DNA of 13,470 nt from Escherichia coli (GTDB taxonomy: Bacteria > Pseudomonadota > Gammaproteobacteria > Enterobacterales > Enterobacteriaceae): NCBI RefSeq assembly GCF_003334315.1, contig NZ_QOWR01000082.1; one strand, 5' to 3'. Position numbers and translations under genes: made by a program. Below the pieces are notes generated by a model. The model was not told the origin of the DNA and made no database searches. It was given only the letters and a program-made list of their open reading frames with translations. Positions 4,231 through 11,706 of this stretch are shown piece by piece. How positions within the stretch are numbered: position 1 is the stretch's first letter; every line of letters begins with the position of its first letter.

Positions 4231-4418
4231 GCCGGATGCGGCGTGAACGCCTTATCCGTCCTACCGTTCAGGCACAAGTTTGTAGGCATGATAAGACGCG
4301 CCAGCGTCGCATCAGGCATCTGCGCATAACTGCCGGATGCGGCATAAACGCCTTATCCGGCCTACCGATCCGGCACAAGTTTGTAGGCATGATAAGACGC
4401 GCTAGCGTCGCATCAGGC
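4231..4418. repeat. BIME: four REP (repetitive extragenic palindrome) units in alternating orientation
   Basis: gccggatgcggcgtgaacgccttatccgtcctac (4231-4264), tgtaggcatgataagacgcgccagcgtcgcatcaggc (4281-4317), gccggatgcggcataaacgccttatccggcctac (4332-4365), tgtaggcatgataagacgcgctagcgtcgcatcaggc (4382-4418). Confidence 0.85.
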
Positions 4419-4430
4419 ATCTGCGCACAA

Positions 4431-4928
4431 TTATGAAATGATACGCTCCCCGGCACTAAAATCCGTTACGTCCCCCGCCCAATCGATGGGATATAACCCT
4501 CGCGCGACATCGCGATGGAACGTTGAGAATGGCCAATCACTCACTTGCTTTACCCAACCATGCTTTACTGGATTTATATAAATATAATCAACATGATGCC
4601 TATAATCTTTGGTATTGCGGATGGCGTGCTCCCAAAAACGTGGTTGCCAGATATTTTTCAATCCACAAGCATGGGTAAATTGCTTTTTAATTTCCCGCCA
4701 GCGCGAGGAAAAATCATCATCGCCTTCAGGTAATGTCCAGATACAGTGCATATGCTCTGGCAAAACGACCCAGGCGTTGATTTCAAAAGGCCTGTCTCGC
4801 TTAACTTTAATAATGGCGTGACGGAGCATCTGGTACTGGGTGGTCAAGAGTTGGCTTCGACGATTGCGTAAATTCACCGTGAAAAACCAGGTTCCCCCCT
4901 TGATGTAATAACGACGATATTCAGACAT
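4431..4928 (-). CDS. rayT: RayT (YafM), REP-associated tyrosine transposase of the HuH / IS200-IS605 TnpA-like family, 165 aa
   Basis: The 165-aa ORF has the HuH motif (PEHMHCIW) and a C-terminal tyrosine region (YRHHVDYIYINPVKHGW); ATG at 4928..4926; REP clusters lie on both sides. Confidence 0.92.
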   Translation of the reverse strand: MSEYRRYYIKGGTWFFTVNLRNRRSQLLTTQYQMLRHAIIKVKRDRPFEINAWVVLPEHMHCIWTLPEGDDDFSSRWREIKKQFTHACGLKNIWQPRFWEHAIRNTKDYRHHVDYIYINPVKHGWVKQVSDWPFSTFHRDVARGLYPIDWAGDVTDFSAGERIIS

Positions 4929-5022
4929 GGCGACTCCTTTTTCTCAACGGTAAGAAGAAAAGGAAAGGTCGGCAATGAGGTGATGGAATAACAGGAAAGC
5001 GGCTCGCAAAAACGCACAGATT

Positions 5023-5853
<831 letters not shown>

Positions 5854-6759: not shown

Positions 6760-7500
6760 ATGCGTAAAATCGCATTAATTCTTGCGATGTTGTTGATCCC
6801 GTGCGTTTCGTTTGCCGGTTTGCTGGGCAGCAGTAGCTCGACCACGCCAGTGAGCAAAGAGTATAAGCAGCAGTTGATGGGATCCCCTGTCTACATCCAG
6901 ATCTTCAAGGAAGAACGTACGCTCGATCTCTACGTCAAAATGGGCGAGCAATATCAACTGCTCGACAGCTATAAAATCTGTAAATATTCCGGCGGCTTAG
7001 GGCCAAAACAGCGTCAGGGCGATTTCAAAAGCCCGGAAGGGTTTTATAGCGTCCAGCGTAATCAGTTAAAACCAGACAGCCGTTACTACAAAGCGATTAA
7101 TATTGGTTTCCCCAATGCCTATGACCGTGCGCATGGTTATGAAGGGAAATACCTGATGATCCACGGCGATTGTGTTTCCATCGGCTGCTACGCAATGACC
7201 AATCAGGGTATTGATGAGATATTCCAGTTCGTTACTGGTGCGCTGGTGTTTGGTCAGCCGAGCGTGCAAGTGAGTATTTACCCGTTCCGCATGACCGACG
7301 CCAATATGAAGCGCCATAAATATTCCAACTTTAAGGACTTCTGGGAGCAGCTGAAGCCGGGTTACGACTACTTTGAGCAAACCCGTAAGCCACCAACCGT
7401 TTCTGTGGTCAATGGTCGTTACGTGGTCAGCAAGCCGTTAAGCCACGAAGTTGTGCAGCCACAACTGGCATCAAACTACACGCTCCCCGAGGCAAAATAA
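6760..7500 (+). CDS. yafK: YafK (DpaA/LdtF), YkuD-fold L,D-transpeptidase-like periplasmic protein, 246 aa
   Basis: Signal peptide [19 protein letters not shown] followed by a YkuD-like catalytic region ([18 protein letters not shown] with a conserved Cys); AAGGA Shine-Dalgarno upstream of ATG 6760. Confidence 0.92.
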
Positions 7501-8238
7501 GCGCCATTCGCCTGGCATAATCTTTTGCCAGGTTTCATTGCCCGTCAGCGGCTGTGTTGCAATCACCGTGACCACATCATTCGGTGTGGTCTGCGAGCTG
7601 AAGTCGATTTCCACATCCTGATCCAGCAACGTTGCCACGCCAAACGGCGCGCGGCGGGTGATCCAGTGTAAATTAGTCGAGCAATACGCCATTACATAGC
7701 GACCGTCCGAAAGCAGCATGTTGAAAACGCCCTTCGCCCGCAGTTCATCCGCCAGTGAGGCGATATATTTAAACACTGCCGCCATGTTGCCCGGCGTGCG
7801 CGGGTAACGCTGCGTTAATTTATGCAGGAGCCAGCAAAAGGCTTTTTCGCTGTCGGTTTCGCCTACCGGGCGGAAGTTGCCGGTTTCCAGTGATTTGTAG
7901 CCCGTCAGTTGTCCGTTATGGGCATAAGTCCAGTTACGCCCCCATAACTCGCGGGTAAATGGGTGAGTATTTTCCAGCGCCACCTCGCCCCGATTAGCCT
8001 GGCGAATATGAGCCACCACCGAACAGGATTTTATCGGGTAGTCCTGGACAAGTTTGGCGATGGGGGAATTAAAGCTGGGTTGTGGATCTTTAAATGTGCG
8101 ACAGCCTTTACCTTCGTAAAAGGTAATGCCCCAGCCATCTTTATGTGGCCCGGTTCCACCACCACGCTGTACAAGCCCGGTGAAACTAAAGCAGATATCG
8201 GTAGGGACGTTGGCGCTCATCCCGAGCAATTCGCACAT
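7471..8238 (-). CDS. yafJ: YafJ, class II (Ntn-type) glutamine amidotransferase-like protein, 255 aa
   Basis: Starts [19 protein letters not shown]: a Cys at position 2 after Met is the hallmark of Ntn class II GATases. GGAGG Shine-Dalgarno 7 nt upstream of ATG 8238..8236; the track ORF is extended 5 codons by a TTG. Confidence 0.9.
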
Positions 8239-8302
8239 GGGTAACCTCCACAACAGCGGGAGCGCATGGCCCCCGGCGAAGATTGATTTAAGAATTTTCA
8301 GG

Positions 8303-8436
8303 TCGGATGCGGCGTGAACGCATTATTCGGCCTACGGTTCGCGTACAGATTTGTAGGCATGATAAGACGCGTCAGCGTCGCATCAGGCATCAGCGCACAA
8401 ATGCCGGATGCGGCGTAAACGTCTTATCCGGCCTAC
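8303..8436. repeat. BIME: three REP units between gmhA and yafJ
   Basis: tcggatgcggcgtgaacgcattattcggcctac (8303-8335), tgtaggcatgataagacgcgtcagcgtcgcatcaggc (8352-8388), gccggatgcggcgtaaacgtcttatccggcctac (8403-8436). Confidence 0.85.
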
Positions 8437-8443
8437 GCCAGAC

Positions 8444-9022
8444 TTACTTAACCATCTCTTTTTCAATCAACTGGATCAGGATATGGATCACTTTAATGTG
8501 AATCTCCTGAATGCGGTCGGCATAACCAAAGTGCGGTACGCGAATTTCGATATCCGCCGTGCCAGCCATTTTGCCGCCGTCTTTACCGGTCAGGGTGATC
8601 ACTTTCATTCCCTTCTCACGCGCCGCTGCGATCGCTTTGATCACGTTTGCAGAGTTACCGGAGGTGGAGATCCCCAGCAGTACATCGCCTTCGCGACCTA
8701 CCGCTTCAACGTAGCGGGAGAAAATATCATTGAAACCGAAATCATTACCGACGCAGGAAATATGACTAACGTCAGAAATAGCAATCGCCGGGTAGCCCGG
8801 ACGGTTTTCACGGTAGCGACCGGTCAACTCTTCGGCAAAGTGCATAGCGTCGCAATGGGAACCGCCGTTGCCGCAGGAAAGCACTTTGCCACCGGCTTTA
8901 AAGCTGTCTGCTAACAGGACCGCCGCGCGCTGAATGGCGTGAATATTGGCGTCATCTTTTAAAAAGTTAGCCAGCGTTTCCGCCGCTTCGTTCAGTTCGT
9001 TACGAATAAGATCCTGGTACAT
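8444..9022 (-). CDS. gmhA: GmhA (LpcA), sedoheptulose-7-phosphate isomerase (SIS domain), 192 aa
   Basis: [20 protein letters not shown]...[18 protein letters not shown] matches GmhA; ATG at 9022..9020 with an AAGGA Shine-Dalgarno. The track ORF is extended 11 codons from an upstream TTG. Confidence 0.95.
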
Positions 9023-9223
9023 GAGGATATCCTTCAGCATAAATGTAATAGACAAAATGCAGTGTACCGGATACCGCCAAAAGCGAGAAGTACGGGCAGG
9101 TGCTATGACCAGGACTTTTTGACCTGAAGTGCGGATAAAAACAGCAACAATGTGAGCTTTGTTGTAATTATATTGTAAACATATTGCTAAATGTTTTTAC
9201 ATCCACTACAACCATATCATCAC

Positions 9224-9240
9224 AAGTGGTCAGACCTCCT
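9224..9240. promoter_or_regulatory. FadR operator in the fadE promoter
   Basis: aagtggtcagacctcct contains the TGGTCnGACCT core of FadR operators and lies about 25-40 bp upstream of the fadE ATG. Confidence 0.65.
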
Positions 9241-9261
9241 ACAAGTAAGGGGCTTTTCGTT

Positions 9262-11706
9262 ATGATGATTTTGAGTATTCTCGCTACGGTTGTCCTGCTC
9301 GGCGCGTTGTTCTATCACCGCGTGAGCTTATTTATCAGCAGTCTGATTTTGCTCGCCTGGACAGCCGCCCTCGGCGTTGCTGGTCTGTGGTCGGCGTGGG
9401 TACTGGTGCCTCTGGCCATTATCCTCGTGCCATTTAACTTTGCGCCTATGCGTAAGTCGATGATTTCCGCGCCGGTATTTCGCGGTTTCCGTAAGGTGAT
9501 GCCGCCGATGTCGCGCACTGAGAAAGAAGCGATTGATGCGGGCACCACCTGGTGGGAGGGCGACTTGTTCCAGGGCAAGCCGGACTGGAAAAAGCTGCAT
9601 AACTATCCGCAGCCGCGCCTGACCGCCGAAGAGCAAGCGTTTCTCGACGGCCCGGTAGAAGAAGCCTGCCGGATGGCGAATGATTTCCAGATCACCCATG
9701 AGCTGGCGGATCTGCCGCCGGAGTTGTGGGCGTACCTTAAAGAGCATCGTTTCTTCGCGATGATCATCAAAAAAGAGTACGGCGGGCTGGAGTTCTCGGC
9801 TTATGCCCAGTCTCGCGTGCTGCAAAAACTCTCCGGCGTGAGCGGGATCCTGGCGATTACCGTCGGCGTGCCAAACTCATTAGGCCCGGGCGAACTGTTG
9901 CAACATTACGGCACTGACGAGCAGAAAGATCACTATCTGCCGCGTCTGGCGCGTGGTCAGGAGATCCCCTGCTTTGCACTGACCAGCCCGGAAGCGGGTT
10001 CCGATGCGGGCGCGATTCCGGACACCGGGATTGTCTGCATGGGCGAATGGCAGGGCCAGCAGGTGCTGGGGATGCGTCTGACCTGGAACAAACGCTACAT
10101 TACGCTGGCACCGATTGCGACCGTGCTTGGGCTGGCGTTTAAACTCTCCGACCCGGAAAAATTACTCGGCGGTGCAGAAGATTTAGGCATTACCTGTGCG
10201 CTGATCCCAACCACCACGCCGGGCGTGGAAATTGGTCGTCGCCACTTCCCGCTGAACGTACCGTTCCAGAACGGACCGACGCGCGGTAAAGATGTCTTCG
10301 TGCCGATCGATTACATCATCGGCGGGCCGAAAATGGCCGGGCAAGGCTGGCGGATGCTGGTGGAGTGCCTCTCGGTAGGCCGCGGCATCACCCTGCCTTC
10401 CAACTCAACCGGCGGCGTGAAATCGGTAGCGCTGGCAACCGGCGCGTATGCTCACATTCGCCGTCAGTTCAAAATCTCTATTGGTAAGATGGAAGGGATT
10501 GAAGAGCCGCTGGCGCGTATTGCCGGTAATGCCTACGTGATGGATGCTGCGGCATCGCTGATTACCTACGGCATTATGCTCGGCGAAAAACCTGCCGTGC
10601 TGTCGGCTATCGTTAAGTATCACTGTACCCACCGCGGGCAGCAGTCGATTATTGATGCGATGGATATTACCGGCGGTAAAGGCATTATGCTCGGGCAAAG
10701 CAACTTCCTGGCGCGTGCTTACCAGGGCGCACCGATTGCCATCACCGTTGAAGGGGCTAACATTCTGACCCGCAGCATGATGATCTTCGGACAAGGAGCG
10801 ATTCGTTGCCATCCGTACGTGCTGGAAGAGATGGAAGCGGCGAAGAACAATGACGTCAACGCGTTCGATAAACTGTTGTTCAAACATATCGGTCACGTCG
10901 GTAGCAACAAAGTTCGCAGCTTCTGGCTGGGCCTGACGCGCGGTTTAACCAGCAGCACGCCAACCGGCGATGCCACTAAACGCTACTATCAGCACCTGAA
11001 CCGCCTGAGCGCCAACCTCGCCCTGCTTTCTGATGTCTCGATGGCAGTGCTGGGCGGCAGCCTGAAACGTCGCGAGCGCATCTCGGCCCGTCTGGGGGAT
11101 ATTTTAAGCCAGCTCTACCTCGCCTCTGCCGTGCTGAAGCGTTATGACGACGAAGGCCGTAATGAAGCCGACCTGCCGCTGGTGCACTGGGGCGTACAAG
11201 ATGCGCTGTATCAGGCTGAACAGGCGATGGATGATTTACTGCAAAACTTCCCGAACCGCGTGGTTGCCGGGCTGCTGAATGTGGTGATCTTCCCGACCGG
11301 ACGTCATTATCTGGCACCTTCTGACAAGCTGGATCATAAAGTGGCGAAGATTTTACAAGTGCCGAACGCCACCCGTTCCCGCATTGGTCGCGGTCAGTAC
11401 CTGACGCCGAGCGAGCATAATCCGGTTGGCTTGCTGGAAGAGGCGCTGGTGGATGTGATTGCCGCCGACCCAATTCATCAGCGGATCTGTAAAGAGCTGG
11501 GTAAAAACCTGCCGTTTACCCGTCTGGATGAACTGGCGCACAACGCGCTGGTGAAGGGGCTGATTGATAAAGATGAAGCCGCTATTCTGGTGAAAGCTGA
11601 AGAAAGCCGTCTGCGCAGTATTAACGTTGATGACTTTGATCCGGAAGAGCTGGCGACGAAGCCGGTAAAGTTGCCGGAGAAAGTGCGGAAAGTTGAAGCC
11701 GCGTAA
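9262..11706 (+). CDS. fadE: FadE, acyl-CoA dehydrogenase of fatty-acid beta-oxidation, 814 aa
   Basis: Long ORF with an N-terminal membrane-anchor-like region ([17 protein letters not shown]...) and acyl-CoA dehydrogenase domains. The start is taken at ATG 9262 (814 aa) rather than the track ATG at 9184, because the FadR operator at 9224-9240 falls inside the extension. Confidence 0.95.

Follow-up and report, generated by a model that had tools for sequence, protein, structure and literature searches.

A small BIME-2-type REP cluster in the transcribed gmhA-yafJ spacer of Escherichia coli

The spacer between gmhA and yafJ in Escherichia coli holds an element that can be identified, on its sequence, as a small BIME-2-type REP cluster of a known and catalogued kind, and published long-read data place it inside a single gmhA-yafJ transcription unit. 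The interpretation that we favour, with a probability of roughly 0.55, is that this known REP element is read through by RNA polymerase and that its REP3:REP2 pair would serve as a barrier to 3′ exonucleases, shielding the gmhA message, rather than as an efficient terminator. REP and BIME clusters in 3′ untranslated regions have long been known in E. coli, the family is represented in Rfam and an RNA from this very spacer appears in a published table. What is modestly new is comparative: how old and how polymorphic the insertion is, that different repeats have recurrently used the gmhA-yafJ junction, and that the insertion may have broken a hairpin-mediated translational coupling between the two genes.

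Taken alone the finding matters little, and the locus is of interest as a possible natural test case for the effects of REPs in a native operon. Three alleles segregate in E. coli, the repeat-free ancestral state is available in sister genera, and the cluster is flanked on one side by gmhA, a well-expressed gene for the LPS core, and on the other by the poorly expressed yafJ. For REPs generally, the size of the effect on stability, read-through and translational coupling is still debated.

Results

The gmhA-yafJ locus

The window, by which we mean the whole 13,470-nt stretch of E. coli DNA analyzed, is the reverse complement of approximately positions 239,095-252,564 of E. coli K-12 MG1655, and this correspondence was the basis for converting K-12 coordinates. 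A 501-nt probe around the REP cluster matches K-12-type genomes at 100%, and the RefSeq gene order across the window (fadE, gmhA [b0222], yafJ [b0223], dpaA, yafQ-dinJ, yafL and rayT) is as expected. Both genes of interest are encoded on the minus strand. The coding sequence of gmhA (lpcA; D-sedoheptulose 7-phosphate isomerase), taken from the open reading frame list and identical to its K-12 counterpart, runs from 9022 to 8444 and ends in a TAA stop codon at 8446-8444. That of yafJ (class II glutamine amidotransferase), likewise present in the open reading frame list and in RefSeq, runs from its ATG at 8238-8236 to 7471. Our literature search found no publication naming gmhA and yafJ together.

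The yafJ start is of the AUGUG type (8234-8238, minus strand) and specifies Met-Cys; in a class II amidotransferase, this cysteine would be expected to act as the nucleophile. The gene is included in a list of E. coli AUGUG starts, where its Shine-Dalgarno sequence is given as GGAGGU and its abundance as 9.41 ppm, which marks YafJ as a low-abundance protein. At its distal end, yafJ is convergent with dpaA (yafK): the coding regions share 30 nt (7471-7500), the two genes appear in a list of convergent "excludons", and a Rho-dependent region listed antisense to yafJ at K-12 244,775 (window ~7790, plus strand) corresponds to dpaA transcripts entering yafJ. A promoter scan of 7900-9300 returned no sigma-70-like site; because the real gmhA promoter region was missed as well, this result carries little weight with regard to a promoter for yafJ.

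Anatomy of the REP cluster

Three REP units occupy positions 8303-8436 between the co-directional genes, as the initial annotation had proposed, and both their coordinates and their content were confirmed from the sequence. The 7-nt segment GTCTGGC (8443-8437, minus strand) separates the gmhA stop codon from the GTAG of REP3, with equal spacing in single-REP alleles, and a further 64 nt (8302-8239) lie between REP1 and the yafJ ATG, in agreement with the earlier estimate of about 65 bp in addition to the cluster. By the published definitions, REP units of the y, z1 and z2 types measure 35, 29 and 37 nt, respectively, with a GTAG tetranucleotide immediately 5′ of the palindrome (PMC8266576). 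Along the transcript, the units follow one another in the order y, z2, y, and their orientations are minus, plus, minus.

The unit nearest to gmhA, REP3, is a 35-nt y unit (GTAGGCCGGATAAGACGTTTACGCCGCATCCGGCA; 8436-8402, minus strand) with an intact GTAG (8436-8433) and a hairpin of its own of −13.7 kcal/mol. A head-to-head linker at 8391-8401 (CAGCGCACAAA on the plus strand), which alignment shows to be conserved in the BIMEs flanking rayT and which is devoid of the IHF consensus, joins it to REP2, a z2 unit (GTAGGCATGATAAGACGCGTCAGCGTCGCATCAGGCAT; 8353-8390, plus strand) with GTAG at 8353-8356. REP2 is inverted relative to the other two units and folds into a hairpin of −14.8 kcal/mol (z = −3.9). 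Beyond a tail-to-tail linker read from the sequence at 8338-8352 lies REP1, a decayed y unit (GTAGGCCGAATAATGCGTTCACGCCGCATCCGACC; 8337-8303, minus strand; GTAG at 8337-8334), whose hairpin amounts to −6.5 kcal/mol (z = +0.14). For comparison with these three values, the consensus y unit folds at −20.9 kcal/mol. REP1 and REP3 are direct repeats, 88% identical, whose starts are 101 nt apart.

The GTAG tag by which E. coli REPs are recognized is thus present in all three units. REP3 and REP2 also form the palindromic stem-loop, which in REP1 is recognizable by sequence, through its identity to REP3, but not by stability. Because the REP1 hairpin is no better than that of shuffled sequence, we describe the cluster as two intact units and one relic. 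Eight copies of the REP core GATGCGRCG are present in the window, where 0.52 would be expected, and 0 of 200 shuffles reached 8. A longer REP pattern with a fixed 18-nt spacer had zero matches in the window; since y units are shorter than z2 units, one spacer length cannot fit both, and the core motif was used in place of this pattern. As befits a high-copy extragenic element, E. coli genomes contain a median of 7 places matched by a 201-nt query, and the copies in the window are all intergenic; the cluster is one of several hundred REPs of E. coli K-12.

Two further observations concern the units themselves. At window position 8422, within REP3, K-12 and strain D7 carry an A on the minus strand (GATAAGACG), and the other E. 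coli examined as well as Escherichia albertii have the consensus G. The A weakens the stem of REP3 itself, but within the long hairpin that REP3 can form with REP2 (described below) it pairs perfectly. In addition, plus-strand open reading frames at 8307-8501 (64 codons, MRRERIIRP...) and 8408-8914 (168 codons, MRRKRLIRP...) begin in REP1 and REP3, respectively. They are antisense to gmhA and were set aside as typical spurious open reading frames derived from REPs.

Family assignment and the neighboring rayT locus

The REP3 and REP2 pair gives a full-length match to the Rfam family naRNA4 (RF02564) at 8356-8433 on the minus strand, covering model positions 1-77 of 77 with a score of 74.1 bits against a gathering threshold of 59.5 (E ~6e-13). 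Matches to the Rfam family mir-5856 fell far below threshold and were taken as chance. Including its linkers and tail flank, the REP2-REP3 unit has ~95% identity with the right-hand BIME of rayT (5015-5107), and the alignment shows a close similarity to the left-hand units as well. The y and z2 units alternate, the short linkers match those of the rayT BIMEs, and the IHF consensus WATCAANNNNTTR, a hallmark of BIME-1 (the L motif), had no match in 8230-8450, so that a BIME-1 identity was rejected. The assignment to a small BIME-2 follows from the near-identity to a rayT BIME, from the naRNA4 matches of the rayT units and from the lack of the IHF consensus. Gyrase is known to bind and cleave BIME-2 elements.

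The window also contains the E. coli "REPtron", consisting of rayT (yafM; 4431-4928, minus strand; RefSeq), which encodes a REP-associated tyrosine transposase (RayT or TnpA-REP, by which E. coli REPs are recognized and cleaved), and the BIMEs on its two sides, one of four units (4232-4420) and one of two units (5015-5107). Both match naRNA4 at 77-78 bits. The distance from the gmhA cluster to rayT and its BIMEs is 3.3 kb.

Predicted RNA structure of the spacer

In the minimum-energy fold of the transcribed strand, the segment matching naRNA4 forms a long imperfect REP3:REP2 hairpin of −47.1 kcal/mol (z = −6.75), and 0 of 200 shuffled sequences were as stable. This hairpin is predicted to start at the G of GUAG, 7 nt past the gmhA stop codon, and the stem that REP3 can form by itself starts 11 nt from the stop. 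The fold of the whole spacer has an energy of −76.8 kcal/mol (z = −3.2). A scan of 8239-8443 for intrinsic terminators found no G+C-rich hairpin with a U-tract, REP1 being followed by CCUGAAAAUUC, and a Rho-independent terminator was rejected on this basis.

Published transcripts and 3′ ends

SMRT-Cappable-seq lists one operon, b0222|b0223, with a transcription start at 9054 on the minus strand (K-12 243,511; Supplementary Data 2 of that study), and the cluster is therefore read through. This operon was flagged as novel because gmhA and yafJ formed two separate units in RegulonDB. The same dataset gives no termination site within the spacer; the method depletes transcripts shorter than 1 kb, so that an RNA comprising gmhA only (~700 nt) would be under-sampled. 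The Term-seq data of Adams et al., in which curated peaks only are reported, list no curated 3′ end in K-12 244,122-244,326, and no Rho-dependent, bicyclomycin-sensitive region on the sense strand in the spacer.

A putative RNA, AC0244, is listed as a "3UTR" element between gmhA and yafJ in Table S1 of the RepRanger paper. Its coordinates, K-12 244,158-244,263 (window 8407-8302, minus strand), cover REP2 and REP1, although the boundaries are loose, the length being 106 nt by coordinates versus 78 nt as listed. The call was made because the RNA-seq profile is unlike that of the neighboring regions, and AC0244 is not among the four RNAs probed by northern blot in that work. The listing fits a protected decay product. 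In the public data, then, read-through of the cluster is documented and termination is not, and a discrete putative REP-containing RNA is reported.

Variation within Escherichia

Among 5,426 complete E. coli genomes, the three-unit form, scored as coverage of at least 80% of a 201-nt probe centered on the cluster, is present in 4,554 (~84%). The 501-nt probe is covered to at least 80% in 5,084 of the same genomes, and the difference between the two counts indicates that ~530 genomes (~10%) carry a short form and ~340 (~6%) some other form. In the short form (loci L002, L004, L005 and L090; strain TUM14771 carries this allele), a single REP remains in a spacer of 104 nt, which is exactly 101 nt shorter than that of K-12. 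Recombination between the direct repeats REP3 and REP1 would give precisely this outcome. In strain E686 (L003), the only strain with the "other" form that was examined, the REPs are replaced by a GGGAGAGGGCCGGGGTGAGGG-type element that resembles boxC and has a folding energy of −28.8 kcal/mol.

E. albertii possesses an orthologous three-unit cluster in which REP1 is more decayed, its GTAG having become GTAA, and the three-unit state is therefore older than the split between E. coli and E. albertii. In both species the hairpins of REP3 and REP2 remain intact, and most of the changes are compatible with pairing. Since ~16% of E. coli genomes carry something other than the three-unit form, any function of the cluster would have to be dispensable or to be met by another hairpin.

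An older hairpin and a recurrently invaded junction

The comparison across genera was made with one genome per species and covered 80 Enterobacterales loci. In 78 of the 80 species, gmhA lies directly upstream of yafJ on the same strand, and in 45 of these 78 the spacer measures 18-57 nt, most often 45-48 nt. The common short spacer has the form TAA-GACTTCGCTGGGGG-loop-CCCCCGCTGTTGTGGAGGTGATGT-ATG and can fold into a G+C-rich hairpin, in whose outer stem CUUC, 2-3 nt past the gmhA stop codon, pairs with the GGAG of yafJ. In other genera a hairpin of different sequence takes the equivalent place, and a few of these hairpins are followed by U-runs.

The corresponding hairpin in the window is predicted at 8243-8284 on the minus strand (−20.3 kcal/mol), with a consensus structure derived from 24 sequences of several genera. 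Its outer stem joins CUUC (8281-8278) to the yafJ Shine-Dalgarno sequence GGAGG (8249-8245), its inner stem is GGGGGC/GCUCCC, and it is conserved in Citrobacter, Enterobacter, Leclercia, Lelliottia and Escherichia. Covariation among the 24 sequences is weak (a term of −0.46 kcal/mol, with most pairs invariant), so that the argument for this ancestral hairpin is one of conservation and energy, not of compensatory change.

At 8280-8297 (minus strand), the sequence AAATTCTTAAATCAATCT resembles the last codons and stop of gmhA in relatives, GAAATGGTTAAGTAAATCT, and probably represents what is left of the 3′ end of the ancestral gmhA. It shares 24 of 28 identities with the Leclercia sequence (L042), in register with the alignment of the hairpin. 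Insertion of the REPs would probably have left behind a relic copy of the end of gmhA. When the two flanks of the cluster are compared directly, their similarity is not significant, 425 of 2000 shuffles scoring as well, and a target-site duplication was rejected; the support for the relic comes from the comparison with relatives and not from the flanks. As judged from these alignments, the REP cluster is an insertion of the Escherichia lineage between the gmhA stop codon and the older hairpin.

The junction carries insertions of 75-284 nt in the other 33 of the 78 species. Among the invaders are REPs of other types (in Citrobacter, Salmonella arizonae, Cedecea and the Klebsiella group) and a palindromic element of ~105 nt; further ones resemble ERIC or boxC. 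Invaders were seen at loci L008, L011, L015, L019, L030, L065, L040, L081 and L055, at L016, L034, L039, L043, L044, L047, L048, L054, L057 and L069, at L009, L010, L021 and L025, and at L068; in most of these loci the spacer lies upstream of position 1501. Because the insertions are independent and occur in many genera, the gmhA-yafJ junction can be regarded as a recurrent landing site. What stays nearly constant among the alleles and species examined is a hairpin directly following the gmhA stop codon, and the ancestral distance of 2-3 nt between stop and hairpin in other genera suggests translational coupling.

Discussion

According to the reading that we favour, RNA polymerase starts 32 nt upstream of gmhA and reads on across the cluster as far as yafJ. 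The REP3 and REP2 segments of the transcript would adopt either two hairpins or one long hairpin of ~36 bp that begins 7 nt past the stop codon, and this structure would block 3′-to-5′ exonucleases. The gmhA segment and small REP fragments would then outlast the yafJ segment, so that expression would be biased toward gmhA. The REP barrier would add to the older hairpin that closed the gmhA message and that is predicted to sequester the yafJ ribosome-binding site.

Precedents bearing on such a barrier, and on the change in the gmhA:yafJ ratio that we infer from it, point in more than one direction. Stable stem-loops, REPs among them, set steady-state 3′ ends by halting PNPase and RNase II, with Rho termination taking place further downstream. 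REP325, the founder of naRNA4, is reported to stabilize the upstream gene yjdM and to attenuate the downstream gene yjdN in part. For 146 tandem gene pairs with an intervening REP, the median log2 ratio of upstream to downstream expression is 0.96 versus −0.09 for controls, with large scatter. Genome-wide, terminal REPs showed no association with longer mRNA half-lives. At the present locus, a strong exonuclease block could be expected to leave a 3′ end in Term-seq, and that none is listed might argue against the barrier; the older hairpin at 8243-8284 could, moreover, already give 3′ protection.

The competing explanations are not mutually exclusive. The initial annotation had suggested that REP hairpins so placed commonly act as 3′ stabilizers or partial terminators, and as a general statement this is borne out by the literature, including the partly Rho-dependent attenuation described for REP325. 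Applied to gmhA and yafJ, the proposal divides. The stabilizer half is weakly favoured by the putative RNA AC0244. The terminator half, in which the cluster together with Rho would stop some polymerases after gmhA and thereby set the gmhA:yafJ ratio, appears unlikely: documented attenuation at REP325, the C/U-rich and G-poor composition of the 30 nt past REP1, and the predicted sequestration of the yafJ Shine-Dalgarno sequence, which could leave yafJ poorly translated and the RNA open to Rho, all speak for it, but full-length gmhA-yafJ primary transcripts are recorded, SMRT-Cappable-seq lists no termination site and Term-seq neither a sense-strand 3′ end nor a bicyclomycin-sensitive region in the spacer, and nothing there resembles an intrinsic terminator with its hairpin and U-tract. 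The same annotation had named uniform read-through into yafJ with no 3′ ends at the BIME as the outcome that would speak against it, and the public data come close to this, both datasets having the blind spots noted above. An effect on translation would be of a different kind. REPs no more than 15 nt past a stop codon reportedly lower translation of the upstream gene by ribosome stalling (Liang, Rudd and Deutscher, 2015). A ribosome stalled at the REP3 hairpin, followed by cleavage of the mRNA and a lowering of GmhA via tmRNA, would agree with the distance of 7 nt from TAA to GTAG and the first paired base (11 nt to the REP3 stem), and with the occurrence of some hairpin ~3-11 nt past the stop in each of the three E. 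coli alleles and in the majority of relatives. We nevertheless regard such a brake as rather doubtful; it would bring no obvious benefit to gmhA, a housekeeping gene of the LPS core. Stalling would in any case be compatible with an exonuclease barrier.

Somewhat less doubtful, though still improbable in our estimation, is that the cluster is neutral or selfish DNA, a repeat mobilized by RayT into a permissive hot spot where it persists without a selected function. The polymorphism of the locus (three-unit, one-unit and other forms in ~84%, ~10% and ~6% of 5,426 genomes), the decay of REP1 in E. coli and E. albertii alike, the independent invasion of the junction by unrelated repeats in other genera and the proximity, at 3.3 kb, of rayT with its own BIMEs are what this account would lead one to expect. 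It fits less well with the REP3 and REP2 hairpins, which have been kept across the two species through changes mostly compatible with pairing, and with the hairpin found after the gmhA stop in nearly every allele and species examined, which suggests constraint. A role at the level of the DNA or the nucleoid, either as a BIME-2 gyrase site or as the source of an naRNA4-like RNA that condenses the chromosome with HU, we consider very improbable: the naRNA4 match exceeds its threshold and the architecture is that of BIME-2, the class bound by gyrase, but a 2026 preprint describes no measurable nucleoid compaction by REP325/naRNA4 and no REP-REP contacts.

The exonuclease barrier remains the reading that we prefer, and the comparison across genera raises an additional idea about yafJ, which we put forward as a long shot. 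In the ancestral spacer of ~45 nt, the type seen in most Enterobacteriaceae, with the CUUC anti-Shine-Dalgarno 2-3 nt past the gmhA stop, a ribosome terminating on gmhA may have opened the yafJ ribosome-binding site, and the Escherichia REPs, by moving the stop codon ~160 nt away, may have uncoupled yafJ from gmhA translation. The three E. coli alleles would then represent natural expression variants. If this were true, the junction would be a recurrent landing site at which miniature repeats retune one gene pair across genera.

Several known systems resemble the gmhA cluster in part. REP325/naRNA4, a BIME-2 between yjdM and yjdN, is built of the same y and z2 unit and also lies between co-directional genes within one transcription unit; it comprises 12 palindromic units, in contrast to the two intact units and one relic of the gmhA cluster, which has left nothing in public 3′-end maps. 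With the stop-proximal REPs of the nrdAB type (Liang et al., 2015), positioned within 15 nt of a stop codon, the likeness is one of distance. The BIMEs of rayT share with the gmhA cluster the GTAG-tagged y and z2 units and the matches to naRNA4, but they flank the transposase gene itself, whereas the gmhA cluster sits in an operon spacer some distance away. The REP between malE and malF is, like the gmhA cluster, an intercistronic hairpin in a polycistronic mRNA, and Newbury and colleagues reportedly proposed in 1987 that it blocks 3′ exonucleases. Work by Espeli from 2001 is likewise said to deal with stabilization or attenuation by intergenic REPs. The gmhA-yafJ spacer differs from malE-malF in retaining, downstream of its REPs, an older hairpin that is not of REP origin.
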